A stretch of DNA of 32,000 nt, taken from the NCBI RefSeq assembly GCF_000025685.1, contig NC_013964.1, forward strand, positions 360,001 to 392,000. Direction: 5' to 3'. The position numbers and the translations under genes are program-made. The DNA comes from Haloferax volcanii DS2. GTDB taxonomy: Archaea > Halobacteriota > Halobacteria > Halobacteriales > Haloferacaceae. The notes beneath the pieces were generated by a model that did no database searches, had not been told where the DNA came from, and saw only the letters and a program-made list of their open reading frames with translations. Each line of letters starts with the position of its first letter. Position 1 is the stretch's first letter. This document shows positions 7,486 through 32,000 of the stretch, in pieces.

Positions 7486-8280
7486 ATGAAACAGACGGGG
7501 CAAAAAGGGGGGCCACGGACGCTGAAGACGGTCACGACGGCGTCACGGGTTCTCGACGCCGTCAAAGACTGCGATGGAATCGGTGTTTCGGAGCTCTCCG
7601 ACTATTTGGACATCTCGAAGAGCACGGCGTACATCCATCTCAGGACGCTGGAGGAAAACGGCTTGCTCGTCCAGCGCGGGGACCGCTACCGGTTCGCGTT
7701 CAAATTCACCGTCCTCGGAGAGTACGCGCGGAATCAGAGCCCGCTGTACCGATACGGTAAGCCGGAGGTCGAAAAACTCGCGGCGGAGACCGACCAGTAC
7801 ACGCACATCGTCACCGAGGAGAACGGCTACGGGGTCAACCTCTACCAGGTGAAAGGGGACACGAGCGTCGATGGAGAGTACCAGACCGAGAAGGTACAGA
7901 GCCAAGACCACCTCCACTACACCGCCTCCGGAAAGGCGATTTTGGCCGCCCTTCCCGACGAGCGAGTCGAGAAAATCATCGAACAACGCGGACTCCCTGC
8001 GCAGACGAAAGCCACTATCACCGACCGCGAGGCGCTGTTCGACGAACTCGAACAGATTCGCGAGCGCGGCTACGCGTACAACGACGAAGAGGAGATCAGA
8101 GGGTTTCGCGCCATCGGTGCGCCAATCGAAGACCCGAGCGGGCAGGTGCTCGGTTCGGTGAGCGTGTCGGGCCCGACCAGTCTCCTGCAAGGCGAGCAGT
8201 TCCAAGAGCACGTCCCGAAACTCGTCACGCAGTCCGCGAACGTCATCGAGGTCAACATCAACATGAACGCGCAGTCGTAG
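7486..8280 (+). CDS. IclR-family transcriptional regulator
   Basis: 264 aa. N-terminal winged HTH (VSELSDYLDISKSTAYIHLRTLEENGLL). C-terminal effector domain with SGKAILAALPDERVEKII, YAYNDEEEIRGFRAIGAPI and LGSVSVSGP, typical of IclR. Confidence 0.9.
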   Translation: MKQTGQKGGPRTLKTVTTASRVLDAVKDCDGIGVSELSDYLDISKSTAYIHLRTLEENGLLVQRGDRYRFAFKFTVLGEYARNQSPLYRYGKPEVEKLAAETDQYTHIVTEENGYGVNLYQVKGDTSVDGEYQTEKVQSQDHLHYTASGKAILAALPDERVEKIIEQRGLPAQTKATITDREALFDELEQIRERGYAYNDEEEIRGFRAIGAPIEDPSGQVLGSVSVSGPTSLLQGEQFQEHVPKLVTQSANVIEVNINMNAQS

Positions 8281-8594
8281 TCGATGGGACGGGGCGTTTG
8301 TAATGTTCGAACGCGCTTCCAAACGGGAGTCGTATGAGAATATTGTTAAATCCCCACGATATTCATCTTGCATCGCCTTGGAGAACGCTCAATATCACCG
8401 ACATCAGCACTCTCTGTTGGAGTTGATTCGTCACACCCACACAAGTGTGTTATCACCGTACAATACACCGTGCGCGATGACACGGATGCGGGAGCGGCAG
8501 ATAATTTTACACATCTACGACCGTAATCCGCTGCGACGAAGTGCTGAAATTGTATCATTAGATAGTCACGATTCGAGAGCATATAAAGTTCGGC

Positions 8595-8665
8595 AAAAAC
8601 GAACGTAACCGTCGGGCGAGCCAGGAGAGCGGGCGAAGACCGCGGGTTCGGCTCGCTCGAACCCG
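8595..8665 (-). terminator. candidate terminator of the second IclR gene
   Basis: An 8-bp stem CGGGTTCG/CGAACCCG with a 7-nt loop (8643-8665) starts 2 nt after the stop codon. Further downstream on the minus strand is a T5 run (A5 at 8595-8599 on plus) inside the small dyad GTTCG-TTTTTGC-CGAAC. Confidence 0.45.
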
Positions 8666-8667
8666 AG

Positions 8668-9435
8668 TCACGCGAGCGCGAGTTCCAGTTCGAACTCGCT
8701 GACGATGTCCTTGACCGTGTGTGCGAGTTCGGCCTTCCGGTCCTCGCCGGTCACCGAGTGGGCCGGGCCCGTGACGCTGAAACCGCCGATAACGTCGCCC
8801 GAACGGCGCGTCGCGGCGACGCCGATGGCGTAGAGTTCGTTGAAGTTCTCGGCGCGGTTGACGGCGTAGCCCTGCTCGCGGACGCGCTCCAGTTCCTCGA
8901 ACAGCGCCTCGCGGTCGGTGGTGGTGTTTTCCGTCTCCTGCGGCAGGCCCCACCGGTCGAGTATCTGTTCGATGCGCGGTTCGGGGAGTTCCGCGAGAAT
9001 CGCCTTCCCGACGGCGGTGTTGTGCAGGAACAACCGATTGCCGAGTTGCTCGTGGGACCACCCCATCTTGCTCCCCGAGGCGGTGTGCAGGAAGACGGCC
9101 TTCCCACCCATCTCGACGGTGAAAATCGACCGAAGGCGGGTCTCTTCGAACAGTCGCTCGGTGAACTGCCGCGCGAGGACGAACGCCGGTTCCCGCGTCC
9201 GGACTTGGTTCCCTAACCGAAGCAGTTCCGGGCCGATGAAGTAGAAATCGCCCTCCTTGATGACGAACTGTTCCTGCTTGAGCGTCGCGAGGTGACCGTG
9301 AATCGTGCTTTTGGGCTTGTCCATCCGCTCGGCGATTTCGGAGACTCGCGCGCCGTCTATCGCTTCGAGTTGCTTCAGAATCGCTATCGAGGTGGCGGTC
9401 GTCCGGAGCGTCTTTGGTGAGTTATCCGTTGGCAT
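8668..9435 (-). CDS. IclR-family transcriptional regulator (second, divergent paralog)
   Basis: 255 aa. HTH VSEIAERMDKPKSTIHGHLATLKQEQFV. C-terminal motifs VGKAILAELPEPRIEQIL, GYAVNRAENFNELYAIGVA and IGGFSVTGP. Convergent with the first IclR gene. Confidence 0.9.
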   Translation of the reverse strand: MPTDNSPKTLRTTATSIAILKQLEAIDGARVSEIAERMDKPKSTIHGHLATLKQEQFVIKEGDFYFIGPELLRLGNQVRTREPAFVLARQFTERLFEETRLRSIFTVEMGGKAVFLHTASGSKMGWSHEQLGNRLFLHNTAVGKAILAELPEPRIEQILDRWGLPQETENTTTDREALFEELERVREQGYAVNRAENFNELYAIGVAATRRSGDVIGGFSVTGPAHSVTGEDRKAELAHTVKDIVSEFELELALA

Positions 9436-9538: not shown

Positions 9539-10645
9539 TCACCCCTCGACTTCGACCCAGCCGCCGCGCTCGCCGGACTCGTAGGCCGCATCGAGGACGC
9601 GAAGCAGCTGCACGGCGTCGTCGGCCGTCGCGGGCACGTCGCCGGTCTCGTAGCCCGCGAAGTAGTCCTCGAAGTAGTCCTGCACGAAGTCGCCCCACGC
9701 CGGGAACCGGTCGTAGGTGAACTCGAACTCGACGGTCCGCTTGGGCGCGGCGGTCCAGTCGGGGTGTTCCGAGGTGATGTCGAGCGGGACCGTGGGTTCG
9801 TGCTGCAGCGAGTCGTGGTGCAGCGGCGTCAGCGCCTGCCCCTCGGTGCCGTAGAGCCCGAGGTGCGTGTCCTTGCCGCGGTCGCTCAGGTAGTAGCCGG
9901 TGTGGTACGTCCCGAGCGTCCCGCTTTCGGTCTCGAACTGGAGGACTGCTCCGGCTTCCACGTCAGCCTCGACCGCGTCGTGGAACCGGGCGTTCACCCG
10001 CGCGATGGGGTCGTCGAGAATCCACGGCATCACGTCGACCCAGTGCGGGCCAATCCACTGGAGCGCGCCGCCGCGACTCGTCTCCCTGTCGTAGAGGTAG
10101 TGGTCGGTGTCCCGGTAGGAGAGCTGGCTGGCGTTGAAGCGGCCGTCGAGCGTCCACACGTCGCCGAAGAAGCCCTCCGAAACTCGGTCGCGGAGCGCCA
10201 TCGCGACGGGGTTGCGCCGGTAGTACATCGTCGGCGAGACGGTCACGCCGAGCTCGTTGGCCCGCTCGGCGATGTCTTCGAGGTCGGCGGCGGTCCGAGC
10301 GATGGGTTTCTCGCTGACGACGTGAACGCCGTTCTCGACGGCGCTCTCGATGATTTCCGGCGTCTCGTCGCTCCGGTAGGTTATCCACGCCACGTCGACG
10401 TCGGCGTCGGAGACGAGTTCGTGTGGGTCCTCGTAGACCGCCGCGCCGCCGACGAGGTCCGCCATGTCCTGTCCCTCGGTCGTGATTTCGTCGGGCCGGT
10501 CGTCCATCGCCGCGATGTTCTCCACGTCGACCCGCCGGCCGGGCTCGCAGACCGCGGTAATCGTCGCGTCCAACTCGCTCGCGACCGCGAAGTAGGGGTC
10601 CCGGTGGTGGTGGTCGATACCGATGTATCCGATATTTGTACCCAT
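9539..10645 (-). CDS. Gfo/Idh/MocA-family oxidoreductase (paralog 1)
   Basis: 368 aa. N-terminal Rossmann-like IGYIGIDHHH and the family-typical ENGVHVVSEKPIA (EKP motif). TATA-like box 22-31 nt upstream of the ATG. Confidence 0.8.
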   Translation of the reverse strand: MGTNIGYIGIDHHHRDPYFAVASELDATITAVCEPGRRVDVENIAAMDDRPDEITTEGQDMADLVGGAAVYEDPHELVSDADVDVAWITYRSDETPEIIESAVENGVHVVSEKPIARTAADLEDIAERANELGVTVSPTMYYRRNPVAMALRDRVSEGFFGDVWTLDGRFNASQLSYRDTDHYLYDRETSRGGALQWIGPHWVDVMPWILDDPIARVNARFHDAVEADVEAGAVLQFETESGTLGTYHTGYYLSDRGKDTHLGLYGTEGQALTPLHHDSLQHEPTVPLDITSEHPDWTAAPKRTVEFEFTYDRFPAWGDFVQDYFEDYFAGYETGDVPATADDAVQLLRVLDAAYESGERGGWVEVEG

Positions 10646-10744: not shown

Positions 10745-12844
10745 TTAGCGCTGCGGCGTCTCAACCCGACGAGACCACGACCGGAGCCACGGGCGAGTCC
10801 CGCCGTTGGGGACGTTCAGTTCGTGGCTGTTGACCGGGAGGTCCGGGTAGCCGCCGACCTGTTCCTGACTGTCGACGAGGTAGCTCTCCCCGCCTTCGAC
10901 GTTTTCGAGAATGCGTTCGTCGGTCGCCGTCCGGTCGGCCGGGCGCGCGCCGACGTTCGCGAGGTTGTGGTCGAACGTCCGGTCCGACGACATCGCCGCC
11001 AGTCCGTCGGGCCACAGCGGCCGTTCATCGACGACAGTCACGTTCTCGTCGACCATCGCCACGTCGCCGTCGGTGAGGTTGTCTTCGAGGTACGCCACGG
11101 CGGTGTCCACGTCGTCCTCGGTGAAGACGTTCGCCTTGTCCGAGTTGGGTCGGAGGTAGGCGTTGCCGACGATGCTCGCCTCGGTGTCGGGGTCAAGCCA
11201 GGTGCCGTCTTCGAAGTCGTACATCACGTTGTTGACGACGACGCTCTGGGTTCCCTCCTTGAGTCTGGGATGGCGGTCGGTATTGAACGCCCAGACGTTC
11301 CCCAGCATGGCGACGTTCTTCGCGTCGTTGCCGATGAGCGACCCGTAGCCGTGTTCGCCCTTCGGGTGGACCGAGTCGTCGAGCGCCTCGGCGACGAGGC
11401 AGTTCGAGACGGTCGTCTCCGCGGTCTCGTAGCCGACCGAGAGGCACTCGTCGACGCTCCACGAGGCGGAGACGTGGTCGATGACGTTGTTCGTCGTCTC
11501 GTCGGCCGTGTTGACCGTGTCGAGCGCCCAGTCCTCGGTCGCGTCCTCGATGCCCGCGTCGCCGAGTCGGACTCGAACGTGCTGGAGGACGCAGTCGCTC
11601 GCCCCGATATTCACGCGACCCTTGACCAGGGTGACGCCCGGCGAGGGCGCGGTCTGGCCCGCGATGTAGCACTTGTCGTACGGAATCGGGAGGTCGCGCA
11701 CGCCGAGGTCGATTGTTCCGCTGGTCTCGAAGACGACCAATCGCTCGCCGTCGATGGTGACCGCCTTTTCCAGTTGGCGGCGGGTCGGTTCGGTTATCAC
11801 GATGATCGGGGTGTCGTCGTCGAGCCACGGTGCGGCCTCGGCGAACCCGTCGCTCGGTCCGAAGTGGGACACGCTGTCCGGGCCGGGGTGGGCCGGAACC
11901 TTGCTGTTCGACGGGTTCGGGGTGTTGAACGTGGAAACCGAACCCCGAGCGGTGTCGCCGTCGGCCGTGTCCGCCACCGCGCGAACCTCGTAGTAGCGAC
12001 GCCGCGTCAGGTCGTCGGCGTCGACGCTGAACGCTCCCGACGAGGTGAGTTCCGTCGAATCCGTGGTCTTCCACGACTCGGTGGGTACCTCCCGGTACTC
12101 GAAGTAACACTCTGCGGAGTCGGCACCGCCGAGGTCGCCGAGGTCGCCGGTGAGCGTGGCGGACCCGGGGCCGATGTCGGTCACGTCGCCGGTCGAGACG
12201 AGCGGAACGCCCGTCGTGTTCTCCACGCTCCCCGCGACTTCGACGTCGCCGATATCGCGGTTCCGGTCGGGGTCGACCCCCGAGAGACTCTGGAACGTCG
12301 CCGTCGCGAGCGTCCCCGAGAGGTGGCTGGTGACTGCCAGTCCGACGTAGACGCTGTCGCCCAGCGAGATGTCGGCGGCGTCGAGCGTGTTAATCGACGT
12401 CCACGTCTCGCCGTCCGTGGAGTGGTAGGTCTCTATCGCGTCTCCGCTTCGCTTGAGACGGAGCCAGTCGGCCGGTGTGCCGCCGACGCTATCCGTCTCA
12501 GCGCCGTCTTCGGGCCGATACTGCATCGACGCCTCGCCGTTGGGCCGGCGACGGACCATGACGTTCTTCGAGTCGGGGTCGAGCGACTCGCGGACCATCG
12601 GGCCCGCCTTCGTCCAGCTTTCGACGTTGTCGATGCCGGTGTTCTGGACGGCGACGTCGAAATCGCCGCTCAGCTCCGTATAGTAGTAGTGAAACGCGTC
12701 GGCGGTGCCCCAGATGTCGTCGCCGCCGCCCTGCATCGAAATCACGGTCGCAGCCGCGGCGCTGCCACCGAAGAGGCCAGTCGTCGCCGCACCGATACTT
12801 CCTGCTCCGAGCACGCGGAGGAACGTCCGTCTGTCGGGTCTCAT
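10745..12844 (-). CDS. secreted pectate lyase (PL1-like) with N-terminal ConA/DUF1349-like and FN3-like modules, Tat signal
   Basis: 699 aa. Tat signal MRPDRRTFLRVLGAGSIGAATTGLFGGSAAAA with no lipobox Cys. aa ~35-189 have a DUF1349/ConA-like pattern (GGGDDIWGTADAFHYYY...WTKAGPMVRESL...WLRLKRSGD...VYVGLAVTSH). aa ~205-307 are a beta-sandwich-like module. The C-terminal half has PL1 right-handed beta-helix motifs: YIAGQTAPSPG, NVIDHVSASWSVDE, NTDRHPRLKEG...VVNNVMY. Confidence 0.85.
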   Translation of the reverse strand: MRPDRRTFLRVLGAGSIGAATTGLFGGSAAAATVISMQGGGDDIWGTADAFHYYYTELSGDFDVAVQNTGIDNVESWTKAGPMVRESLDPDSKNVMVRRRPNGEASMQYRPEDGAETDSVGGTPADWLRLKRSGDAIETYHSTDGETWTSINTLDAADISLGDSVYVGLAVTSHLSGTLATATFQSLSGVDPDRNRDIGDVEVAGSVENTTGVPLVSTGDVTDIGPGSATLTGDLGDLGGADSAECYFEYREVPTESWKTTDSTELTSSGAFSVDADDLTRRRYYEVRAVADTADGDTARGSVSTFNTPNPSNSKVPAHPGPDSVSHFGPSDGFAEAAPWLDDDTPIIVITEPTRRQLEKAVTIDGERLVVFETSGTIDLGVRDLPIPYDKCYIAGQTAPSPGVTLVKGRVNIGASDCVLQHVRVRLGDAGIEDATEDWALDTVNTADETTNNVIDHVSASWSVDECLSVGYETAETTVSNCLVAEALDDSVHPKGEHGYGSLIGNDAKNVAMLGNVWAFNTDRHPRLKEGTQSVVVNNVMYDFEDGTWLDPDTEASIVGNAYLRPNSDKANVFTEDDVDTAVAYLEDNLTDGDVAMVDENVTVVDERPLWPDGLAAMSSDRTFDHNLANVGARPADRTATDERILENVEGGESYLVDSQEQVGGYPDLPVNSHELNVPNGGTRPWLRSWSRRVETPQR

Positions 12845-12888: not shown

Positions 12889-13219
12889 TTTATGGCAGCC
12901 TGGACGGAGGCCGACACAGCATATAAAGTCCGAGAGTGTCGAACGAATGACGCCGGCGCTGGTTCGAAATGACGAGATGAGACATGAGATATTACACCAA
13001 TATGTTTGTAACACATCGCCTATTCCTTATAAAATTCGGGATATTCGAATAGAGGCGTTCACTCACACACGTCCTCGATTACGCTCTGTCGGACATCGTC
13101 GTAATCGACGGTTCGCGGATGCAGGCGACGGTCAGGCGCGCGAATCGTTCCGGCGGAAACCGGAACCATGCAAAAGGTTATTACACTCCGACCAGCAGAT
13201 TGATGCAACGAGTCAGCAC

Positions 13220-14368
13220 ATGCAAGAGCTAGGTATCATCATGAACGGCGTGACCGGCCGGATGGGAACGAATCAGCATCTCATCCGCTCTATCGTCGCG
13301 CTGCGCGAGGAGGGCGGCGTGGAACTCCCCAGCGGGGAACGAGTCATGCCGGACCCGCTTCTCGTCGGCCGCAACGAACGCAAACTCCGCGAACTGAGCG
13401 AGGAACACGGTATCGACCGGTGGACCGTCGACCCCGACCTCGAGACGTGTCTCGACGGCGACGACGAGGTGTACTTCGACTCGCAGATAACCCCCCGCCG
13501 CCCGGACAGCGTCATGAAGGCCATCGACGCCGGAAAGCACGTCTACTGCGAGAAACCGCTGGCGAGCGACCTCAGCGCCGCGCTCGACGTGGCCGGGATG
13601 GCTGAAGAGAGCGACGTGAAACACGGTATCGTCCAAGACAAACTCTGGCTCCCGGGGCTGTTGAAGCTCCAGCGACTCATCGAACAGGACTTCTTCGGCG
13701 ACATCCTCTCGGTGCGCGTCGAGTTCGGCTACTGGGTGTTCACCGGCCACGGCCAGGAGGCACAGCGCCCCTCGTGGAACTACCGCGCCGAGGACGGCGG
13801 CGGTATCGTCGACGACATGTTCTCCCATTGGAGCTACGTGCTGGAGAACCTCTTCGGCGAGGTGGAGTCCGTCCGCTGTCTCCAGAAGACCCACATCGAC
13901 GAGCGAATCGACGAGGACGGCGAGCCCTACGAGGCGACCGCCGACGACGCCGCCTACGCCATCATGGAGTTGGAAGACGACATCGTCGCCCAACTCAACT
14001 CCTCGTGGACCGTCCGCGTCAACCGCGACGACCTCCTCGAAATCCAGGTCGACGGGACCGAGGGAAGCGCGGTCGCCGGCCTGCGCGACTGCAAGACGCA
14101 GGGCCACGCGAACACGCCGAAACCGGAGTGGAACCCCGACACGCCGAAGGAACACGACTTCTACGAGGACTGGACGGGCGTCCCGAACAACCGGGTGTTC
14201 GAGAACGCGTTCAAGCTCCAGTGGGAGAAGTTCGTCCGCCACGTCGTCGCCGACGAGCCGTTCCCGTGGGACTTCACCGCCGGGGCGCGTGGCGTCCAAC
14301 TCACCGAGGCGAGCTATCGGTCCTCCGAGGAGGGTCGCCGCGTCGTCCTCGACGACCTCAGCGTGTAG
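13220..14368 (+). CDS. Gfo/Idh/MocA-family oxidoreductase (paralog 2)
   Basis: This is only the 3' 383 codons of the 1209-aa track ORF; upstream of 13220 that frame is antisense to the lyase. ATG at 13220 (MQELGIIMNGVTGRMG), with ATG 13241 as an alternative. Contains GKHVYCEKPLA (EKP motif). 24 nt upstream of the LarA-like gene. Confidence 0.8.
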   Translation: MQELGIIMNGVTGRMGTNQHLIRSIVALREEGGVELPSGERVMPDPLLVGRNERKLRELSEEHGIDRWTVDPDLETCLDGDDEVYFDSQITPRRPDSVMKAIDAGKHVYCEKPLASDLSAALDVAGMAEESDVKHGIVQDKLWLPGLLKLQRLIEQDFFGDILSVRVEFGYWVFTGHGQEAQRPSWNYRAEDGGGIVDDMFSHWSYVLENLFGEVESVRCLQKTHIDERIDEDGEPYEATADDAAYAIMELEDDIVAQLNSSWTVRVNRDDLLEIQVDGTEGSAVAGLRDCKTQGHANTPKPEWNPDTPKEHDFYEDWTGVPNNRVFENAFKLQWEKFVRHVVADEPFPWDFTAGARGVQLTEASYRSSEEGRRVVLDDLSV

Positions 14369-19193: not shown

Positions 19194-19314
19194 TACCGGC
19201 GATTTCGCAAAACAAGATAATAGTCCTTTGGGGGACCGCCCCGCGCGTCGCGAGAGTCACGGGCGCGACCGCGTAATCAAATGATGTCAGTAGACAATTA
19301 CCATTATCGATGGG

Positions 19315-19320
19315 TATATA
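19315..19320 (+). promoter_or_regulatory. TATA box for the family-5 SBP gene
   Basis: TATATA lies 28-33 nt upstream of ATG 19348. It is paired with the divergent TATA-like GATAATAG at 19216-19223, which serves the 80-aa membrane ORF. Confidence 0.5.
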
Positions 19321-19347
19321 CGGGATAGTCATAATGGGTACTGTGTG

Positions 19348-23778: not shown

Positions 23779-23783
23779 CCAAC

Positions 23784-23819
23784 CGGACCAGCCGGTCCGT
23801 TTCGCGTCGCTGCTTTTTT
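23784..23819 (+). terminator. candidate terminator after the fused permease gene
   Basis: Hairpin CGGACC-agcc-GGTCCG (23784-23799) followed by a T6 run at 23814-23819, 6-40 nt after the permease stop (23778). Confidence 0.45.
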
Positions 23820-23909
23820 CGATTATCTCGACCCGAGAACGGTCGTGCCACACTGTCTCAGGGAAAAGGTTAACACACGCGCTATCGACCTACGAAACGG
23901 ACTTCAACC

Positions 23910-24011
23910 ATGAAAGTGGAGAAAGAAGGAAATACGACGCGGTACCTGCTCGGCCTCGTGATACTCGTAATCCTGCTCATCGGGGTGTACTACGGATTCA
24001 CCATGATGTGA
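23910..24011 (+). CDS. possible 33-aa single-TM micro-protein
   Basis: ATG AAA GTG ... ATG ATG TGA translates to MKVEKEGNTTRYLLGLVILVILLIGVYYGFTMM. GC3 is fairly high in the hydrophobic part. Not in the ORF track (<60 aa). Its stop abuts the stop of the convergent 72-aa ORF. Weak evidence. Confidence 0.25.
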   Translation: MKVEKEGNTTRYLLGLVILVILLIGVYYGFTMM

Positions 24012-24230
24012 TCAGAACAGTCGGTACGCCCAGAGCAGTACCCGGAACGCGACGGCGACGAACACCAGCAATCCACCGATTATTCCGAACATTCCCGCCC
24101 AGACGCCGGTCTGAAGGGCGGCACCGAAGAGAATCAACAGCGCGCCGAGGAAAACCACCGTCGAGGTGACACCGCCGATTTTGGAGCGAACTGTCCACAG
24201 CACGTTCTGTCGCGTTTGCGCTTGCGCCAT
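24012..24230 (-). CDS. small hypothetical membrane protein (72 aa, 2 TM)
   Basis: Start assigned to ATG 24230 (MAQAQTRQNVLWTV...), with TATA-like CTTATAG (24255-24261) 25-31 nt upstream. Two hydrophobic helices and good GC3. The longer 158-aa track ORF upstream is compositionally non-coding. Confidence 0.5.
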   Translation of the reverse strand: MAQAQTRQNVLWTVRSKIGGVTSTVVFLGALLILFGAALQTGVWAGMFGIIGGLLVFVAVAFRVLLWAYRLF

Positions 24231-24445
24231 GTCAGCACGGACATCGCGGACGAACTTATAGTTTGCCGGTATCGGCAGCCGAACCGCCCGAAGACTCCGA
24301 TATCGACGCGCATGGACTGCGCTGTCGGAAAGTATTAAGTAGTATTGAACGTGATAGATTCCTACTACGGTCACATGTTGACGATAGGCACGCGTAACGG
24401 GCGGGGTCGCTCGCCCGCCGTACGAACCGACGAGAGGGACTGACC

Positions 24446-25507
24446 ATGGCGACGCAACACACCAAACGGAAGACGCGGGACGAGCCATCTGCCGAGCACA
24501 ACGTCTTAGAGATAACGAACGCGAGCGTCGCGTTCGCGATGGAGCGCGGGGACGCGCGGGTCCTCGACGACGTGTCGATAAATGTTCGCCGCGGCGAGGT
24601 GCTCGGCGTCGTCGGCGAGTCCGGCTCCGGCAAGTCGATGCTGGCGGACTCCATGCTCGACGCCATCGACTCCCCGGGGACGCTCACCGGCGACGTGGTG
24701 TTCAACCCGCCGGAGGGGGGCGAGCCCATCAAGGTCAACGAGCTGAGCAAAGAGGAGCTCCGTCGGTTCCGCTGGGAACGGGTCTCGATGGTGGTCCAAG
24801 GGGCCCTCGATTCGTTTAACCCGACGCTCAGCATCGGTGACCACTTCGTCGAGACGCTCCGAGCGCACGACTACGACATTCAGGAGGGGATGGAACGCGC
24901 CCGACAGCTCATCTCCGACGTACACCTCGAACCGGACCGCGTCCTCGACGCATACCCCCACGAGCTTTCGGGCGGGATGAAACAGCGCGCGCTCATCGCG
25001 CTGAGCCTCATCCTCGACCCCGACGTGCTCGTGATGGACGAGCCGACCGCCGCGCTCGACCTCCTGATGCAGCAGTCGATTCTGAAGCTCCTCTCGGAGC
25101 TGAAAGCCGAGTACGACCTCACCATCGTCATCGTGACGCACGACCTGAGCCACGTCGCGCGCATCTCCGACCGCCTCGCGGTGATGTACGCCTTCGAACT
25201 GCTGGAACTCGGCCCGGTGCAGGACATCGTCATGGACCCCGCCCACCCCTACACGCGGGAGCTCCTCAACTCGATACCCGACATCGACGCCGATCTCGAC
25301 GAGATGGCGTCCATCGAGGGGACGAGCCCGGACCCGTTGAACGTCCCGAAGGGCTGTTCGTACCACACCCGATGCCCGCTCGCCGACGAGCGGTGCCGGG
25401 CGACGAACCCGGACCTCATGGAGGTGTCCGACGACCACGGGGCCGCATGCTTCTACACGGACGAGGCCCGCGAGACGATTCCCCTCAAGAAGGAGGTCTC
25501 GAAATGA
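24446..25507 (+). CDS. ABC transporter ATP-binding protein (OppD/DppD-like)
   Basis: Walker A GESGSGKS, signature LSGGMKQR, Walker B VLVMDEPTAALD, and an Opp-type C-terminal Cys-rich extension (CSYHTRCPLADERC...AACFY). Confidence 0.9.
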   Translation: MATQHTKRKTRDEPSAEHNVLEITNASVAFAMERGDARVLDDVSINVRRGEVLGVVGESGSGKSMLADSMLDAIDSPGTLTGDVVFNPPEGGEPIKVNELSKEELRRFRWERVSMVVQGALDSFNPTLSIGDHFVETLRAHDYDIQEGMERARQLISDVHLEPDRVLDAYPHELSGGMKQRALIALSLILDPDVLVMDEPTAALDLLMQQSILKLLSELKAEYDLTIVIVTHDLSHVARISDRLAVMYAFELLELGPVQDIVMDPAHPYTRELLNSIPDIDADLDEMASIEGTSPDPLNVPKGCSYHTRCPLADERCRATNPDLMEVSDDHGAACFYTDEARETIPLKKEVSK

Positions 25508-26619
25508 GCGCCGACCCCCTGCTCCGCGTCGACGACCTGAGCGTCCACTTCGGCGGCAACCAAGGCATCCTCGACCGCTTCCTCGGTGACGACAAAGGCG
25601 TCGTCCGCGCCGTCGACAACGTCTCGCTCGACATCGGCGAGAACGACGTGGTCGCGCTCGTCGGCGAGTCCGGCTGCGGCAAGACGACGCTCGGAAAGGC
25701 CATGATCGGCCTCCAGCGCCCCACCTCGGGGACGGTCCGCTTCCGCGGACAGGACATCTGGAAGTCCGACCTCGAACCCGGCGACATCCCGTACAAGGAG
25801 ATTCGGAAGTCGCTCCAGATGGTCCACCAGGACGCCGGGAACTCGCTGGACCCCAACCGGACGATATTCAAGAACCTCAACCCGGCGCTGAAGAAGTGGC
25901 GGCCGGAACTCAACCTCGTCGAGCGCCGGGAGCTCGTCCACCAGATGCTCGACACGGTCGGGCTCACGCCCGCAGACGACTACGCCTCTCGGTACCCCCA
26001 CCAACTGAGCGGTGGGGAGGCCCAGCGGACCGTCATCGTCCGGTCGATGCTCCTCGAACCCGACCTCATCCTCGCCGACGAGGCCGTGAGCGCCCTCGAC
26101 GTGTCGCTGCGGGTGAACCTGATGGACCTCCTCCTCGAACTGCAGGAGATGTTCAGCACCTCGTTCGTTTTCATCTCGCACAACATGGCGAACGCCCGGT
26201 ACCTCGCCGGTCGCGCCGACGGCCGCATCGCCGTCATGTACCTCGGCCGCATCGTCGAAATCGGCCCGGCGGACGAGATTATCAAGAACCCCCAGCACCC
26301 GTACACCAAGAGCCTCCTGTGGGCGACCTCCGGTCTCTCGGAGATAAACGACCCCATCGAGACGCCGCCGGTCAGGAAAATCGACATCCCGGACCCGGAG
26401 AACCCGCCGAGCGGCTGTCGGTTCCACACCCGCTGTCCCGAGGCGCGGGAGTACTGCACGTCGAACACGCCCGACCTCTCCGGCATGAGCGGCCCGTCGG
26501 ACCGCCACGAGGCGGCCTGCTTCGACGCGCACGACAGAATCGACTACCGGAACAGCGAGCCAATCACCGACGACCTCGACATCGACGTCGCGGACGACGC
26601 GGAACAGCCGGCCGACTGA
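25504..26619 (+). CDS. ABC transporter ATP-binding protein (OppF/DppF-like)
   Basis: ATG 25504 overlaps the upstream stop (ATGA). Walker A GESGCGKTT, signature LSGGEAQR, Walker B LILADEAVSALD, and a C-terminal CRFHTRCPEAREYC...AACF motif. The 44 extra N-terminal codons in the track ORF overlap the previous gene out of frame. Confidence 0.9.
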   Translation: MSADPLLRVDDLSVHFGGNQGILDRFLGDDKGVVRAVDNVSLDIGENDVVALVGESGCGKTTLGKAMIGLQRPTSGTVRFRGQDIWKSDLEPGDIPYKEIRKSLQMVHQDAGNSLDPNRTIFKNLNPALKKWRPELNLVERRELVHQMLDTVGLTPADDYASRYPHQLSGGEAQRTVIVRSMLLEPDLILADEAVSALDVSLRVNLMDLLLELQEMFSTSFVFISHNMANARYLAGRADGRIAVMYLGRIVEIGPADEIIKNPQHPYTKSLLWATSGLSEINDPIETPPVRKIDIPDPENPPSGCRFHTRCPEAREYCTSNTPDLSGMSGPSDRHEAACFDAHDRIDYRNSEPITDDLDIDVADDAEQPAD

Positions 26620-26686: not shown

Positions 26687-26766
26687 ACACCTGTTTTCGC
26701 TCCCGCACTGACGCCCGTTTTCACTCCCGCACCGATTCCTGCGTTCACTCCCGAATTCACTCCGCG
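26687..26766. repeat. degenerate 24-nt tandem repeat (about 3.5 copies, core TTC(A/G)CTCCCG)
   Basis: Units are acacctgttttcgctcccgcactg (26687-26710), acgcccgttttcactcccgcaccg (26711-26734), attcctgcgttcactcccgaat (26735-26756) and tcactccgcg (26757-26766). Units 1 and 2 share 20/24 positions by hand alignment. The last unit contains the stop codon of the Gfo paralog-3 gene. Confidence 0.7.
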
Positions 26767-27875
26767 TCGCCCGCCGGGCCGAGGTCAGTCGGGAAGCCGT
26801 TGGGGACCGACGGCGGACGCTCGCACTGCGCCGAAAGTTCGACGTACGCGCCCTCCTCGGCGGACTCGCGGATGCCGTCCATCGCTTCGAGGACGTGGAA
26901 CCCGAGGTCGCCGCTGGTCCGGTGGTCCCAGTCGGAGTCGAGCGAGTACGCGAGGTCGACGAGGCCGAGACCGCGCTGTTGGCCGGGGTGGTCGCGCTCG
27001 ACGGAAATCTCGCGCCACTCGCCGCCGTCGTCGCTGAGGTGGACGCGGGGCGTCCCGTCGAACCGGTTGGGGTCGGTGACGCTCAGCGTCCCCTCGGTGC
27101 CGTATATCTCGAATCCCGGTAGTTCTGACCCCCACACGTCGAAGCTCGTCAGGAGCGTCCCCGTCGCGCCGCTTTCGAAGGTCACGACGGCCGTCTCGTG
27201 GGTCGGCACCGACACCGGAATCCGCTCGCCGCGGCGCGGTTCACTCGTTATCTCGCGCTCTGCGAACGGCGTGTTCGCGGTCCCGGCGACCGACCGAATC
27301 GGGCCGAGGAGCGTCACGAGCGACGTGAGATAGTACGGCCCCATGTCGAAAAGCGGACCGCCGCCTTCCGCGTAGAAGCCGTCGGGGTCCGGGTGCCAGT
27401 GCTCGTGGCCGTGGTTCGACCAGAACGCCGTCGCGCCGACGGGGTCGCCGATGCGGCCCTCGTCGATGAGGTCGCGACAGGTCTGGATTCCGGTGCCGAG
27501 AACGGTGTCGGGCGCGACGCCGACGGTCAGTCCGCGCTCGTCGGCGGTCTCCAGAATCGCCTCGCCTTCGGCCTTGGTCGCCGCGAGCGGCTTTTCGGTG
27601 TAGGCGTGCTTGCCCGCTCGGAGGGCAGCGGACACGAGGTCGCCGTGGGTGCCCGCCGGCGTGAGCACGACCGCCACGTCGATTACGGGGTCGGCGAGCA
27701 GGTCCTCCGTCGCGAGGACGCGAGGCACGCCGTACTCGTCCGCCTTCGCCTCCGCGCGGTCCGCGTCGAGGTCGGCGCAGGCGGCGATGTCGAGGGCATC
27801 GAAGCGGTTCCCCGCCTCGAAGTAGACATCGCTGATAGCTCCACAACCGATGATACCGAGAGTCACGCGCTCCAT
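26757..27875 (-). CDS. Gfo/Idh/MocA-family oxidoreductase (paralog 3)
   Basis: 372 aa. LGIIGCGAISDVY Rossmann motif, AGKHAYTEKPLA (EKP motif), and GGGPLFDMGPYYLTSLVTLLGP in the C-terminal domain. Confidence 0.85.
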   Translation of the reverse strand: MERVTLGIIGCGAISDVYFEAGNRFDALDIAACADLDADRAEAKADEYGVPRVLATEDLLADPVIDVAVVLTPAGTHGDLVSAALRAGKHAYTEKPLAATKAEGEAILETADERGLTVGVAPDTVLGTGIQTCRDLIDEGRIGDPVGATAFWSNHGHEHWHPDPDGFYAEGGGPLFDMGPYYLTSLVTLLGPIRSVAGTANTPFAEREITSEPRRGERIPVSVPTHETAVVTFESGATGTLLTSFDVWGSELPGFEIYGTEGTLSVTDPNRFDGTPRVHLSDDGGEWREISVERDHPGQQRGLGLVDLAYSLDSDWDHRTSGDLGFHVLEAMDGIRESAEEGAYVELSAQCERPPSVPNGFPTDLGPAGDAE

Positions 27876-27953
27876 ACCGGGGCGACGCGGGAGAGGCCCA
27901 AATAGCTGTTGCCGGGCGCGGGCGCGAAGGGGTCGTCGGTCAGGGAAGCGCGC

Positions 27954-28988
27954 TCAGTCGTCCGCGTCTTCGAGGTTGCCGAGGCCGCCGATAGACGACA
28001 CCGACACCCACTCGCCGCGGCTGTCCGATACCTCGGCGGCGAAGACGATGTCCAGTCCTTTTCTGGCCGCAGCGGGTGAGACCATCGGCGGTCGCCCCTC
28101 GGAAACGGCCGCGACGAAGTCGCGTATCTGGGCGACGTGCGGGCCGTCGGGGCGGGGTTCGGGGAGTTCAACGGGCTGTTGTTCCCCGTTCACTTCGAAC
28201 AGTTCGACGCCCGTCTCAGTGACACGAAGCGTCCCCTCGGTTCCGTTGAATTCGAGGCTGATGGGCTGTTGGGGCCGCGTCGCCGTCGTCGCCGACACCT
28301 GCCCGAGCGCGCCGCCCTCGAATCGGAGGGAGAGCGCGGCCGTGTCGGGGGCGTCGATGTCGTGGTACAGCGCGTCGCCGGTGCCCGCGACCCGTGACAC
28401 GTCGCCCGCGACCCACTGGAGCAGGTCGATGCCGTGGAGCGCCTGCGTGAACAAGACGCCGCCGTCGAGGTCCGCGCTCCCGTGCCACGAAGACACGTCG
28501 TAGTACGAGCGGTCGCGGTGCCACTTCACCCGCACGTCGGCGAACACGAGTCGTCCGAGCCGGCCATCGCGGACCATCTCGCGGGCGAACTGCATCGTGG
28601 GGAACAGCCGCCGTTGGAGGATACAGGCGAGGGTGACGCCCGCGTCGCGGCAGGCGGCGACCATGTCGTCGACACGGTCGGGCGTGATTTCCAGCGGCTT
28701 CTCGCAGAGCACGTCGATGCCGTCTGCCGCGGCGTCGACGACGATGTCGCGGTGGGCACCGTTGGGCGTGCAGACGCAGACGGCGTCGAGGTCGGCGTCG
28801 GCTAACAGGGCGGCGTGGTCGGTGTACGACGGACAGCCGTATGTCTCACCGAACGAACGAGCGGTCTCCGCGGTGTGGTCGGCGCAGCCGACGAGGTCCG
28901 CGCCGTCGACGGCGGCGAGCGCTTCGGCGTGGGACCGGCCCATGCTCGAACAGCCGACGATACCGACCCGAACCGGCGTCTCGGTCAT
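27954..28988 (-). CDS. Gfo/Idh/MocA-family oxidoreductase (paralog 4)
   Basis: 344 aa. VGIVGCSSMGRSH, IDVLCEKPLE (EKP motif), and DGGVLFTQALHGIDLLQWV. Confidence 0.85.
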   Translation of the reverse strand: MTETPVRVGIVGCSSMGRSHAEALAAVDGADLVGCADHTAETARSFGETYGCPSYTDHAALLADADLDAVCVCTPNGAHRDIVVDAAADGIDVLCEKPLEITPDRVDDMVAACRDAGVTLACILQRRLFPTMQFAREMVRDGRLGRLVFADVRVKWHRDRSYYDVSSWHGSADLDGGVLFTQALHGIDLLQWVAGDVSRVAGTGDALYHDIDAPDTAALSLRFEGGALGQVSATTATRPQQPISLEFNGTEGTLRVTETGVELFEVNGEQQPVELPEPRPDGPHVAQIRDFVAAVSEGRPPMVSPAAARKGLDIVFAAEVSDSRGEWVSVSSIGGLGNLEDADD

Positions 28989-29120: not shown

Positions 29121-30389
29121 TCACTCGGGCGAGAAGCTCTCGGTGAGCGTCCGCCCGACGAGTCCGGCGGCGACGAACGCGAGGACGCTGGTGCAGACGA
29201 ACGCCGTGGCGTAGTCGAACCGGGTGGCGAGCACGCCGACGAGAAGCGGTCCGAGAACGCCGCCGAGACCGCGGGCGGTCGAGCGAAGTCCCATCAGTTC
29301 GGACTCGCGGTCGACCGGGGCCACGTCGGCGACGAAGGCGATAGTGCCCACGGTGAGCATGGAGAACGTCACCGCGTGGACGACGAAGGCGGTGCTGCTG
29401 ATACCGATGCGGGCGAGCTGCCCGTCGGGGACGAGCGCGAGCACGACGACGAGCGCCTGCACGCCGCTGCCGGCGAGTCCGCCCACGATGAGCTTCTTCC
29501 GGCCGATGCTGTCGCTCAGGCGACCGAAGCTGTACATCGAGACGACTCGGACCGCGGGACTGACCGCGAGCACGGCACCCATGACGACGTTCGAGAGCCC
29601 CACGTCGGCGACGAGGAACACCGGAACGACCGAGATGAAGCCCTTCTCGGTCATGTTCCGGAGGACGATACCGACGTACAGCCAGCCGAGTCCGGTCCGC
29701 TCGAACAGTTCCCGCCGCGCGCCGCCGGGGAGGAGTCGCCCGCGGACTTCCCCAAGGAGTCGACCCGTGGTCAGCGTCTCTTCCGACGGCGGCGTCGGGT
29801 CGGCGATGCGGAGCGTGAGGAGCGTCGCCACGAGGCCGAGGCCGACGACGACGAGATAGAGGTCGGTCGGCACGAGCAGGCCGACGAGATAGCCGACGAA
29901 CAGCCGACCGCTGATAGCCCCGCTAGAGCGGGCGCTACTGTAGAAACCGATGGAACGTCCGCGCTCCGACTCGCCGCCCGACTCGCTCACGATGGTGAGA
30001 ATCACCGACTGGAAGCCGGCGGTGAACACCGCGAAGAGGCCACGACAGGCGATTTGGAGCGGGACCGAGGCGGTCACGGTCAGCGGGGCGATGGCGAGCG
30101 TCGAGAGGAACGCGGTCCCGATGAGTATCGCTCGCCGCCGACCCGTGATGTCGGCGATTGCGCCCCAGACCGGGGCGAACACGAACAGTCCGAAGGAGAA
30201 CGCCGCGTACGCGAGGCTCACCGCGAACGGCGACCCCTGTTCTCCGATGTAGAGCGCCATCGCCGTGCCGAAGAGCGACCCACACGCGACGCGAGAGATA
30301 CCGATGAGCGCGAGTGCGCTCCGCTGCCCTCGACTCGCTGGTCGAGCCTGCTGATTGACTACCACTACGACTCGGTGTGACACTACCAC
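29121..30389 (-). CDS. MFS transporter
   Basis: About 12 hydrophobic segments. MFS motif A appears in both halves (GAIADITGRRRAILIG; GRLSDSIGRKKLIVGG). No in-frame ATG before TM1, so a GTG start is needed: 30389 is the longest, and 30365 fits better 27-32 nt downstream of the TATA-like element at 30392-30397. Confidence 0.8.
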   Translation of the reverse strand: MVVSHRVVVVVNQQARPASRGQRSALALIGISRVACGSLFGTAMALYIGEQGSPFAVSLAYAAFSFGLFVFAPVWGAIADITGRRRAILIGTAFLSTLAIAPLTVTASVPLQIACRGLFAVFTAGFQSVILTIVSESGGESERGRSIGFYSSARSSGAISGRLFVGYLVGLLVPTDLYLVVVGLGLVATLLTLRIADPTPPSEETLTTGRLLGEVRGRLLPGGARRELFERTGLGWLYVGIVLRNMTEKGFISVVPVFLVADVGLSNVVMGAVLAVSPAVRVVSMYSFGRLSDSIGRKKLIVGGLAGSGVQALVVVLALVPDGQLARIGISSTAFVVHAVTFSMLTVGTIAFVADVAPVDRESELMGLRSTARGLGGVLGPLLVGVLATRFDYATAFVCTSVLAFVAAGLVGRTLTESFSPE

Positions 30390-30455
30390 CCAATAAAGAT
30401 TGGCGAGCCGGAAGGCGATGCGCCGAGGACGGCGGCGCGAGACTCGATGCGACCG

Positions 30456-31343
30456 TCAGGTCGACGGGCCGGCGCGGGCGATGGAGAACTCCGTGAGTCC
30501 GTGTCGCTCGGCGCACGTCCGGTCGCCGTCGGCGACGGCGAGAAGATACGCTTCGAGGTCGTCCGCGTCGGTCTCGCGGGCGTCGAGGTCGATATCGTCG
30601 GGGACGGCCGCGAGCGTGTCCGCGTCGCCCGAGAGTTTCACCACCGGAACGATGGGATGGCCGGCGGGCGTCCCCTGTCCCGTGACGTGGAGGACGAGGT
30701 GCGCGCCCGCGGCGGCGAGGCCGGTCGCGGCCTCCTCGACCCGAGAGGGCGCGTCGAGCAGCGTCACCGCGCCGGCGGCGGCATCGGCAGCGTCCGTTTC
30801 ATCGACTCGTTGGCCGTACGCCGCGACTCCCGTGACCGGCGCGTTGCCGAGGAATCCCGTCGCCGCGTCGAATCCACGGGCCGCCGCCTCCGTTCCGATG
30901 CGCGTCGCCCTCGCGGGGCGGCCCGCCGCGTCGAGCAGTCGGTCGGCGTGCCGTCTGGTCGAGTCCGCGAGGTCGTCGACGACGACGCCGACCGTGAGGT
31001 CACCGAGGGTCGCCGTCTGTTCGTCGGCTGTCGCGGTCGCCCCGTCCGTCCCCTGAGCGGCGGCCGACTCCCGGAGGTCGGCGACGGCGGCCGTGCCGCG
31101 GTCGACGCAAGCGTCGGTCCCCCCGGCGTCCTGTATCGTGAGTTCGCGGACTGGAAGCCCGCGTTCTTCGACCGCCGCGGCGACGACGTCGCTCCGGACC
31201 GTCTCGCAGCCGAGGCCGACGACGACCGTACCCGCGACGTTCGGGTTCCCGGCGAGGCCGACGAGCGTCCGTTCGGTCGGGTCGGCGGTGGCCCGCGAAC
31301 GAGTCTGGGGTGACTCGGCGGCGGTCCGGGTGTGGGTTCCGGG
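30456..31343 (-). pseudogene. UxaA/GarD-family-like ORF without a start codon (possible pseudogene, or 3' part of a recoded SAF-UxaA fusion)
   Basis: My hand translation of the minus strand from 31343 gives PGTHTRTAAESPQTRSRATADPTERTLVGLAGNPNVAGTVVVGLGCETV... and runs into the track ORF MTLLDAPSRVEEAATGLAAAGAHLVLHVTGQGTPAGHPIVPVVKLSGD... The GNPNV..VVVGLGCE and VTGQGTP...PVVK motifs are UxaA/GarD-like. GC3 is high. There is no ATG, GTG or TTG in frame for 192 codons (31343-30768). The frame equals that of the upstream SAF ORF, separated only by TGA at 31344-31346. Confidence 0.5.
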
Positions 31344-31652
31344 TCATCGCTCCACCTCCGCCGCCACGTCGCCGCGGCCGCGGGTGCTCTCGCAATTGTG
31401 CGTGTGGACCCACTCACCGGCCGCGACAGCCGCCGTGGTCCGCCCGATGACCTCACCGTACTTGCGGACCGTCTCGCCGGCCGGCAGCGGGTCGAGGGCG
31501 AACTTGTGGCCGAACGGAACGTCGTCCGCGAGCGTCACCGTCCGGTCTCCGTCGCGGACCTCGCGCCCGTCGTCGAGGTCTCCGAGCGCCGTCGCCACGC
31601 TGTCGCCGTCGGCCAGCACGAGGGCGGCCCCGTCGAGGACGCGGCCCTTCAT
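31344..31652 (-). CDS. SAF-domain protein (UxaA/altronate-galactarate dehydratase N-terminal/small-subunit type)
   Basis: 102 aa from ATG 31652, which overlaps the upstream stop (ATGA). Sequence is MKGRVLDGAALVLADGDSVATALGDL...VPFGHKFALDPLPAGETVRKYGEVIGRTTAAVAAGEWVHTHN. The GHKFA and VHTHN motifs are typical of the UxaA SAF domain. Confidence 0.75.
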   Translation of the reverse strand: MKGRVLDGAALVLADGDSVATALGDLDDGREVRDGDRTVTLADDVPFGHKFALDPLPAGETVRKYGEVIGRTTAAVAAGEWVHTHNCESTRGRGDVAAEVER

Positions 31653-32000
31653 TTGCCCCGCACCTCCGCGAGTTCGCGCGGGTGGACCTCCGTGATGGCG
31701 AACTCCTCCATCCGGCGCGTCTCGGCCCCGGTTCGCTTCCCGTCGGCGACGGCGAGCACCTCGTCGAAGACGCGCTCGCCCGCCTCGGAAATCGTCGCGT
31801 CGCCCTCGACCACCGCCCCGGCGTTCACGTCCATGTTCGACCGCATGCGCTCCCACGTCCGGGGATTTCCCGTGACCTTCACCACGGGCGCGACGGGGTT
31901 GCCGGTGGTGCTCCCGCGCCCGGTGGTGAAGACGATAATCTGCGCGCCGCCGGCGACCTTGCCGACGACGCTCTCCACGTCGTAGCCCGGCGTGTCCATC
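31649..32000 (-). CDS. UxaA/GarD-family dehydratase, C-terminal part (gene continues beyond the window edge)
   Basis: C-terminal sequence DTPGYDVESVVGKVAGGAQIIVFTTGRGSTTGNPVAPVVKVTGNPRTWERM...DVNAG matches the conserved C-terminal domain of altronate/galactarate dehydratases. The N-terminus is outside the window. Confidence 0.8.
   Translation of the reverse strand, partial: MDTPGYDVESVVGKVAGGAQIIVFTTGRGSTTGNPVAPVVKVTGNPRTWERMRSNMDVNAGAVVEGDATISEAGERVFDEVLAVADGKRTGAETRRMEEFAITEVHPRELAEVRGK

Follow-up and report, generated by a model that had tools for sequence, protein, structure and literature searches.

The window analysed here is a stretch of 32,000 nucleotides (nt) from Haloferax volcanii DS2 (positions 360,001 to 392,000 of contig NC_013964.1) with a G+C content of 59%–72%. 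It belongs to the megaplasmid pHV3, and the lyase that it encodes is ADE01341.1 (exact protein match). Real genes among its open reading frames (ORFs) were chosen by third-position GC and acidic protein composition. A previous interpretation of the letters alone, referred to below as the sequence-only reading, had described the window from 7486 onwards as a pectin/oligogalacturonide utilisation island in which an extracellular lyase, oligomer uptake, cytoplasmic exo-hydrolysis, and uronate catabolism follow one another. The genes for a secreted pectate-lyase-like enzyme of family PL1, a GH28 hydrolase, and an Opp-type ATP-binding cassette (ABC) importer are the following:

10745–12844, minus strand: secreted PL1 pectate-lyase-like enzyme with a twin-arginine translocation (Tat) signal, a DUF1349-like beta-sandwich, an FN3-like domain, and a PL1 beta-helix
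15818–17383, minus strand: cytoplasmic GH28 galacturonan hydrolase (alternative start codons at 17356 and 17467)
19348–21444, plus strand: Opp/Dpp-type SBP_bac_5 substrate-binding lipoprotein with a Tat motif and a lipobox
21652–23778, plus strand: fused double ABC permease with two BPD_transp_1 domains
24446–25507, plus strand: Opp-type ABC ATPase 1 (ABC_tran and oligo_HPY)
25504–26619, plus strand: Opp-type ABC ATPase 2 (oligo_HPY)

The lyase is 699 amino acids (aa) long and begins with the twin-arginine motif DRRTFL. Pfam assigns it to no pectate-lyase family, PF00544 included, and returns only a sub-threshold match to DUF1349, so that its placement in PL1 needed more than Pfam; PF00544 is recorded for several of its homologues. 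The NCBIfam model PelZ matches residues 356–693 (E 4e-60) with 204 bits, under the 840-bit equivalog cut-off, and a PDB sequence search retrieves 9buj, named 'pectate lyase' (E 2e-19), with pectin lyases A and B at E about 0.009. In the AlphaFold model (34 homologues; mean predicted local distance difference test score, pLDDT, of 87.6; signal peptide disordered), the C-terminal beta-helix is matched by Foldseek most closely to PfPL1 (9BUJ, E 1.9e-15), followed by 7XKS, 1QCX, 7BBV, and 3ZSC; these relatives include the B. clausii enzyme 7XKS, pectin lyases A and B, Verticillium PelB, and Thermotoga maritima PelA. The N-terminal domain resembles DUF1349 structures and the middle domain FN3. The motifs AGQTAPSPG, (N)VIDH..W..DE, and R.PR.K are unchanged across the 34 homologues, as are residues R524, P526, R527, K529, D448, D456, D465, and E466. 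The R-x-P-R element aligns with that of 9buj, residue roles being assigned from motifs; the invariant motifs and the four acidic residues fit with a Ca2+-dependent pectate lyase. By sequence homology and predicted fold, 10745–12844 is a PL1 enzyme, in agreement with the Tat-signal PL1-like lyase that the sequence-only reading had recognised from the same motifs. Homologues of the same architecture occur across haloarchaea, among them Htur_4783 (58% identical) and Htur_4789, both placed in PL1 by Anderson and colleagues (PMC3102087).

The GH28 protein matches PF00295 with 154 bits against a 22.9-bit cut-off and has no signal peptide, and N213/D215, D236/D237, G269-H270-G271, and R301/K303 (the NxD, DD, GHG, and RIK motifs) are unchanged in 21 sequences, which bears out the signal-less GH28 proposed from the sequence. 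Placement by hidden Markov model, which that reading had asked of both enzymes, was thus straightforward for GH28, while for the lyase Pfam failed and NCBIfam PelZ matched under its equivalog cut-off. Among solved structures, GH28 is nearest to 3JUR (E 4e-48), a cytoplasmic exo-polygalacturonase from T. maritima, and the NCBIfam polygalacturonase, galacturonidase (alpha-galacturonidase), and rhamnogalacturonidase models all match, all under cut-off; judged from its sequence, the enzyme is probably exo-acting. More than 30 haloarchaeal genera have orthologues with 57%–82% identity; among bacteria, Paenibacillus and Bacillaceae come closest, at about 42%.

Matches to rhamnogalacturonidase and alpha-galacturonidase models raise the question of the polymer itself. 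It is unlikely, albeit conceivable, that the two enzymes act not on plant homogalacturonan but on another polymer that contains galacturonate or on a related acidic one; rhamnogalacturonan, apiogalacturonan, and microbial exopolysaccharides would be examples. Sorokin and colleagues suggest an unknown activity for haloarchaeal PL enzymes (PMC9726719), colonies of strain A-rgal3 appeared only on plates with rhamnogalacturonan (PMC12343721), a GH78 gene lies beside PL1 and GH28 in Haladaptatus halobius, and the lectin-type, DUF1349-like domain on the lyase is unusual. The best relatives of both enzymes, however, are active on homogalacturonan: PelZ, PfPL1, and T. maritima PelA for the lyase, and the exo-polygalacturonases 3JUR and PglA for GH28.

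All components of the Opp/Dpp-class ABC importer named by the sequence-only reading are present, from the SBP_bac_5 lipoprotein and the fused permease to the two oligo_HPY ATPases. Homologues of ATPase 1 with 55%–61% identity adjoin GH28 in other genera. The permease fusion is 708 aa long here, and the Haladaptatus pallidirubidus locus has two separate permease genes. Two gaps of unusual length occur at the ABC genes: 18461–19347 (887 nt) holds a small minus-strand ORF of 80 aa at 18951–19193, possibly membrane-spanning, and 23779–24445 (667 nt), which separates the permease from the ATPase genes, holds another of 72 aa at 24012–24230. Both ORFs are in public annotations, and neither gave a family match.

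A profile scan of one genome per species yielded at least 16 haloarchaeal GH28 loci, 14 of them outside Haloferax. The translated sequence of these listed loci was compared with the window proteins and with the neighbours of the cluster in Haloferax gibbonsii, linkage being defined as lying within 10 kb of GH28. The linked genes, counted over the 14 listed loci outside Haloferax, are:

XylDH-like Gfo dehydrogenase: 11 of 14 (53%–75% identity)
PL1: 7 of 14 (49%–58% identity)
Opp ATPases: 7 of 14
MR/MLE enzymes (two, enolase superfamily): 5–6 of 14
644-aa protein (hyp644): 4 of 14
GH4: 4 of 14
KdgD-like DapA-family protein: 3 of 14, and also the Haladaptatus pallidirubidus locus
UxaA genes, GfoC, and esterase (all described below): 0 of 14

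Since PL1 and the Opp ATPases each lie near GH28 in half of the listed loci, their co-location is not a matter of chance. Conserved synteny, which the sequence-only reading had put forward as a check, therefore holds for PL1, GH28, and the Opp ATPases and fails for UxaA. From these comparisons, the conserved core appears to be GH28, PL1, the Opp ATPases, the XylDH-like Gfo, MR/MLE, and the KdgD-like protein.

Most of the catabolic genes of this core lie beyond the window. In Haloferax, a block with the order GH4-USP-MR/MLE-MR/MLE-Gfo-KdgD-like-hyp644-ThuA is situated 10–17 kb to the right of it, and in Haladaptatus the same block adjoins PL1 and GH28. The Haloferax gibbonsii orthologue of the GH28-linked Gfo enzyme is WP_004971515. 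PL1 and GH28 are accompanied in the Haladaptatus loci by genes for a lactonase, an aldehyde dehydrogenase, and MR/MLE, DapA-family, and FAH proteins, and the Haladaptatus pallidirubidus locus likewise carries the lactonase and the aldehyde dehydrogenase. It is the KdgD models that give the DapA-family protein its highest scores (147 and 133 bits, with cut-offs of 278 and 374, compared with 72 bits for DapA). These conserved catabolic genes outside the window were not part of the sequence-only reading, nor were the four Gfo/Idh/MocA genes, the major facilitator superfamily (MFS) transporter, and the LarA-type isomerase within it. The cytoplasmic 644-aa protein shows 79% identity when its Haloferax and Haladaptatus versions are compared (L100:7089–9023 and L007:24327–26264 among the collected loci), and searches against Pfam, NCBIfam, and PDB sequences gave no match to it.

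Taken together, the window probably carries that half of a haloarchaeal pectin/oligogalacturonide locus which serves depolymerisation and uptake, the released monomer being most likely oxidised and the DS2 copy being partly eroded; the probability of this reading is put at roughly 0.6. Its front end (lyase, importer, and GH28) is supported by family, fold, and cell location, while the back end is proposed. The PL1 lyase would cut de-esterified homogalacturonan outside the cell, the oligomers would enter via the Opp-type ABC system, and cytoplasmic GH28 would release galacturonate. This would most likely then be oxidised, not isomerised, with a Gfo/Idh/MocA sugar dehydrogenase standing in for Udh. 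Enolase-superfamily and/or GarD-type enzymes would give 5-keto-4-deoxy-aldarate, which the KdgD-like enzyme would convert to 2-oxoglutarate semialdehyde, and thence 2-oxoglutarate would be formed. The preference for an oxidative (aldarate) route over UxaCBA or KduID follows from the identity of the conserved GH28 partners, among which UxaA does not figure. As to the unsaturated ends, chemistry would allow 5-keto-4-deoxyuronate to be oxidised to the KdgD substrate. Of the sequence of events set out in the sequence-only reading, the gene content for lyase, uptake, and cytoplasmic exo-hydrolysis stands, and the proposed UxaA/GarD catabolic step is not supported. Its statement that the catabolic set differs from the UxaCBA/KduID scheme is upheld, no UxaC, UxaB, KduI, or KduD family having been found among the ORFs scanned.

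Several observations weigh against this oxidative pectin pathway. No haloarchaeon has been reported to grow on pectin, polygalacturonate, or galacturonate, and haloarchaea that possess PL1 and GH28 genes failed to do so on pectin, polygalacturonate, and rhamnogalacturonan (PMC9726719, PMC12343721). The Gfo, MR/MLE, and KdgD-like matches are all under curated equivalog cut-offs, and the right-hand block was read in Haloferax gibbonsii, confirmation in H. volcanii reaching only the first MR/MLE gene. The LarA homologue is 74%–87% identical across haloarchaea that have no pectinases, Haloquadratum included. The locus holds no Udh and no 2-oxoglutarate-semialdehyde dehydrogenase, and no GH105, GH88, PL22, KduI, or KduD was found there for the unsaturated ends that the lyase would make. 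The 644-aa protein might supply a missing step, for example by handling unsaturated oligogalacturonides.

A bolder version, regarded as decidedly unlikely, is that haloarchaea possess a working and unrecognised pathway for pectin, unlike any of the bacterial schemes. Its components would be extracellular PL1, Opp import, cytoplasmic GH28 and GH4, a Gfo protein acting as uronate dehydrogenase, enolase-superfamily and KdgD-like enzymes leading to 2-oxoglutarate, a nickel-pincer 2-hydroxy-acid epimerase module, and the 644-aa protein acting on unsaturated oligomers. Were this so, a Gfo protein might oxidise 5-keto-4-deoxyuronate straight to the KdgD substrate, making KduI and KduD unnecessary, and the growth tests would have failed through induction, ester content, or the behaviour of the polymer in brine, and not for want of a pathway.

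The other catabolic candidates, on which the sequence-only reading had relied, are the UxaA/GarD-family ORFs at the right edge of the window, where the minus-strand order is UxaA1, SAF subunit, UxaA3; they are listed here with the adjoining MFS transporter:

31649–32000, minus strand: C-terminal part of the UxaA1 large subunit, which continues past the window end (396 aa in full)
31344–31652, minus strand: SAF-domain small subunit of a split UxaA/GarD-type dehydratase (102 aa)
30456–31347, minus strand: UxaA3, a UxaA/GarD-family paralogue and pseudogene with no start codon in the Pfam-matching frame
29121–30365, minus strand: MFS transporter (Pfam MFS_1)

The SAF ORF and UxaA1 together supply the SAF, GD_AH_second, and GD_AH_C domains in both the Haloferax gibbonsii and the H. 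volcanii copies. UxaA3 fails this three-domain UxaA/GarD test and is a pseudogene: compared with the intact 389-aa gene of Haloferax gibbonsii, it has suffered a frameshifting deletion of 152 nt, which removes the conserved N-terminal region, and a further deletion of about 125 nt, and the leftover frame coincides by chance with that of the upstream SAF ORF. The lack of an exact protein match in a look-up had first suggested that UxaA3 is no genuine gene in this form. The UxaA/GarD ORFs are present as claimed, UxaA1 being cut by the window end; as a catabolic step they find no support, lying near GH28 in none of the 14 listed loci outside Haloferax, with UxaA3 a pseudogene. The MFS transporter, a homologue of which (53% identical) occurs in the Haladaptatus halobius pectin locus, is a candidate carrier for monomeric sugar acid.

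A reductive or isomerase route, the closest of the alternatives to the sequence-only reading, would use the UxaA-family protein as altronate dehydratase and a Gfo protein in place of UxaB and would pass 2-keto-3-deoxygluconate (KDG) to the semi-phosphorylative Entner–Doudoroff pathway. UxaA1 and the SAF subunit are intact and adjacent, and H. volcanii has KDG kinase and 2-keto-3-deoxy-6-phosphogluconate (KDPG) aldolase. This route is nevertheless judged very unlikely, given that no uronate isomerase is present among the ORFs scanned, that the UxaA genes are unlinked to GH28 at the listed loci outside Haloferax, that the sole NCBIfam match of UxaA1 is galactarate dehydratase (200 bits), and that the conserved partners are the KdgD-like and MR/MLE enzymes.

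The remaining genes comprise regulatory, oxidoreductase, and isomerase functions:

8668–9435, minus strand: IclR-family regulator IclR2 (Pfam IclR_C and HTH_IclR)
9539–10645, minus strand: Gfo/Idh/MocA oxidoreductase GfoA (Pfam; in NCBIfam far under every equivalog cut-off)
13220–14368, plus strand: Gfo/Idh/MocA oxidoreductase GfoB (NCBIfam at family level; inside a long spurious ORF)
14393–15769, plus strand: LarA-superfamily (nickel-pincer nucleotide) isomerase homologue of 'group 22' (458 aa; NF052515)
26757–27875, minus strand: Gfo/Idh/MocA oxidoreductase GfoC (family matches)
27954–28988, minus strand: Gfo/Idh/MocA oxidoreductase GfoD (family matches)

Both IclR regulators noted in the sequence-only reading are real genes, but only IclR2 belongs to the cluster. 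It is 98% identical in other Haloferax clusters and 69%–72% identical in an IclR-Gfo-Gfo-LarA homologue module of Halosolutus and Haladaptatus, whereas IclR1 (7486–8280) is missing from the same cluster in other Haloferax species. The island hence begins near 8668 and not, as had been stated, at 7486. The supposed link to KdgR, the bacterial pectinolysis repressor, holds at family level only: IclR2 and IclR1 score 81 and 113 bits, respectively, against an equivalog cut-off of 275 bits, and the BhcR and PcaR models match these proteins as high as or above KdgR.

GfoB is a 382-aa gene in public assemblies; 24 nt separate its end from the LarA homologue, which is read from the same strand and scores 501 bits against the 400-bit cut-off of NF052515. 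Neither a single sequence nor a 40-sequence profile matched any PDB entry, and the link to LarA structures came from the fold search alone: LarA-family structures take the first 19 places in the Foldseek result (E 8e-10 to 8e-6; next E 1e-2), with a model that is confident only at residues about 40–290. Residues H119, H185, K198, and H214 are unchanged in 40 diverse homologues, and it is by their spacing that they resemble LarA, 66/13/16 here comparing with 66/10/16 for LarA H108/H174/K184/H200 (PMC7583248). H. volcanii is reported to possess LarB, LarC, and LarE homologues, HVO_0197, HVO_2381, and HVO_0190 (PMC8305020).

The conservation of the LarA homologue in pectinase-free haloarchaea makes its tie to pectin an indirect one. 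GfoA orthologues with 79%–84% identity occur in modules without pectinases as well, and an IclR-GfoA-GfoB-LarA homologue-FAH module is present without a pectinase in Halosolutus and Haladaptatus (L089:301–12642 and L090:2529–12569). It is accompanied by a DUF4147/MOFRL (glycerate-2-kinase-like) gene in the former and by an NMT1-type ABC transporter in the latter. On this comparative evidence, IclR2-GfoA-GfoB-LarA homologue is a separate conserved module that appears interleaved with pectin genes in Haloferax; as the module exists elsewhere without pectinases, the Haloferax lyase gene would have been inserted into a pre-existing module. It probably processes a hydroxy-acid intermediate; glycerate, tartrate, or a similarly small hydroxy acid might be its substrate. 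On Haloarcula marismortui pNG700, the LarA homologue is located between DUF4147 and LUD-domain (lactate utilisation) genes.

GfoD homologues with 41%–51% identity lie near GH28 in three other genera, while no GfoC gene was seen beside GH28 in the 14 listed loci outside Haloferax. In Haloferax gibbonsii and several other Haloferax, a second Tat-secreted lyase with DUF1349 and PL1 domains is encoded between GfoC and GfoD (621 aa, 42% identical in the catalytic domain; L005:38578–40443 in Haloferax gibbonsii). The window has only a 78-nt spacer at this point (27876–27953) and no second lyase.

The mosaic nature of the cluster, with a module that exists elsewhere without pectinases and with UxaA genes and GfoC that are specific to Haloferax at the listed loci, could suggest chance neighbours on a megaplasmid rich in sugar catabolism and not a single system; a shared operator, moreover, was not found in k-mer and palindrome scans of the intergenic regions. 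This is scarcely credible. The linkage of PL1, GH28, and the Opp ATPases recurs across genera, esterase homologues stand directly beside GH28 in about 12 Bacillaceae loci, and two Haladaptatus species have FAH and the LarA homologue as neighbours of PL1 and GH28 in another arrangement. The intergenic scans returned one perfect 20-nt palindrome, GTTCCGGCGGAAACCGGAAC, at 13147–13166, 54 nt upstream of GfoB. It was rejected as a conserved IclR site, being found in H. volcanii only, with near-matches at chance level; its absence from other Haloferax copies of the cluster makes a conserved operator unlikely. A general repeat search gave only GC-rich coding-sequence noise.

Erosion of the DS2 copy is most apparent in the gene directly upstream of GH28:

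17474–18460, minus strand: Abhydrolase_7 (Pfam) esterase-like gene without a nucleophile elbow

The sequence-only reading had named this gene as an esterase-like alpha/beta hydrolase, and its presence is confirmed; an active esterase is contradicted by the loss of GHSGG. An in-frame deletion of 69 nt between two 11-nt direct repeats, CGCGCTCGACG, takes out this motif (junction near 17810–17820), which is kept in other Haloferax species and in bacterial homologues. The short product of 328 aa is called in all H. volcanii assemblies shown, and the protein has weak PDB matches to 3NUZ and 3G8Y. From its sequence, the esterase-like protein of DS2 is probably inactive. It is the least conserved of the cluster among Haloferax (75%–93% identity, versus 91%–100% for its neighbours). 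With this apparently dead esterase, the UxaA3 pseudogene, and no second lyase, the window copy is, by comparison with its relatives, incomplete and partly decayed.

Decay might have gone further, so that the locus was acquired for pectin use and the pathway no longer works in DS2. Such a relic is possible though somewhat unlikely. The three losses, the low conservation of the esterase gene, and the want of any report of haloarchaeal growth on pectin (PMC9726719) are in its favour. PL1, GH28, the whole ABC system, all four Gfo genes, and the LarA homologue are, however, intact and 91%–100% identical to those of other Haloferax, and the lost parts are accessories, esterase and UxaA being unlinked to GH28 at the listed loci of other haloarchaeal genera.

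The preferred reading, a partly eroded pectin locus with an oxidative back end, has its closest parallel in T. maritima, which supplies the best or near-best solved relatives of three island proteins: PelB (3JUR), PelA (3ZSC), and the LarA-fold protein 4NAR. The last is presumed, from accession order, to be probably GntE. The UxaR regulon of that bacterium (pelA, aguEFG, pelB, uxaE, uxaD, gntE, gntK) likewise joins an extracytoplasmic PL1, an oligogalacturonide ABC importer, and a cytoplasmic exo-GH28 (PMC3750489), and both loci contain a LarA homologue, GntE of group 20 in the T. maritima pectin regulon and a group 22 protein in Haloferax (PMC7583248, PMC3750489). The two differ in the regulator (IclR-type in Haloferax, GntR-type in T. 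maritima), in the importer (Opp-type with a fused permease versus aguEFG), and in the added DUF1349-like and FN3-like domains of the Haloferax lyase. Haloferax also has no UxaC, UxaE, or UxaD, and its downstream enzymes point to oxidation.

In this respect it resembles the bacterial oxidative uronate pathway of Agrobacterium and Pseudomonas (Udh, Gci or GarD, KdgD, and 2-oxoglutarate-semialdehyde dehydrogenase), with KdgD-like, enolase-superfamily, and GarD-family genes likewise linked to GH28 and PL1. The Haloferax locus differs in having no Udh-type dehydrogenase, for which a Gfo/Idh/MocA protein is the presumed replacement, in matches that are all sub-equivalog, and in having no semialdehyde dehydrogenase in the locus. 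With the KdgR-controlled pectinolysis of Dickeya and E. coli (Pel, Ogl, KduI, KduD, UxaCBA, KdgK, and KdgA) it shares a secreted, PelZ-homologous PL1, an IclR regulator, and a UxaA-family gene; the KdgR equivalog score is missed, Ogl, KduI, KduD, UxaC, and UxaB are not among the scanned ORFs, and the Haloferax GH28 is cytoplasmic.

Other haloarchaeal sets, those of Haloterrigena turkmenica (Htur_4783–4790), Natronoglomus, and Natrarchaeobius, are, like that of Haloferax, genome predictions only (PMC3102087, PMC9726719, PMC12343721). The Haloferax set is smaller, with one or two PL1 and with no PL2, PL11, PL22, or CE8 in the cluster, and the esterase, the UxaA trio, and GfoC are accessories particular to it. 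Cluster DNA is 92%–97% identical in plasmids of Haloferax gibbonsii and H. alexandrinus, where RefSeq already uses the names 'pectate lyase', 'glycoside hydrolase family 28 protein', 'DUF362 domain-containing protein', 'Gfo/Idh/MocA family oxidoreductase', 'alpha/beta fold hydrolase', and 'UxaA family hydrolase'. A pectate lyase of H. volcanii was recorded by Anderson and colleagues in 2011 (PMC3102087), and that comparative-genomics remark is all that the literature yielded on hexuronate, polygalacturonase, or pectate-lyase work in this species. To call the system undescribed, as the sequence-only reading did, was therefore an overstatement: the locus is a variant of known pectin loci and not a new kind of system.

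The same reading was right that pectin use by Archaea is uncharacterised (PMC9726719, PMC12343721). PL and GH28 genes are widespread in haloarchaea, yet enrichment and growth attempts on pectin have all failed (PMC9726719, PMC12343721). Because the locus is located in the main genetic model haloarchaeon, archaeal pectin use is directly testable there, although the lesions in DS2 mean that Haloferax gibbonsii may be the better test organism. Judging from sequence, the locus may also be a source of salt-active PL1 and GH28 enzymes, and it gives a physiological context to an uncharacterised nickel-pincer enzyme group.

By locus numbering, the island would correspond approximately to HVO_B0318–B0336. 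An experimentally detected, ethanol-induced small RNA that affects motility, sRNA63 (HVO_B0326s; pHV3 378513–378690) (PMC3956466), should be inside or beside the island by the same numbering. The first 7.4 kb of the window have no connection with the pectin cluster. Positions 1–8280 form a separate cluster of two BPD_transp_2 permeases, a double ABC ATPase, adenine deaminase, a Bmp/PnrA-type binding protein, and IclR1. This looks like a system for nucleoside/purine uptake and salvage, not for pectin, and the predicted purine-degradation genes HVO_B0299–B0311 (PMC8305020) adjoin it.

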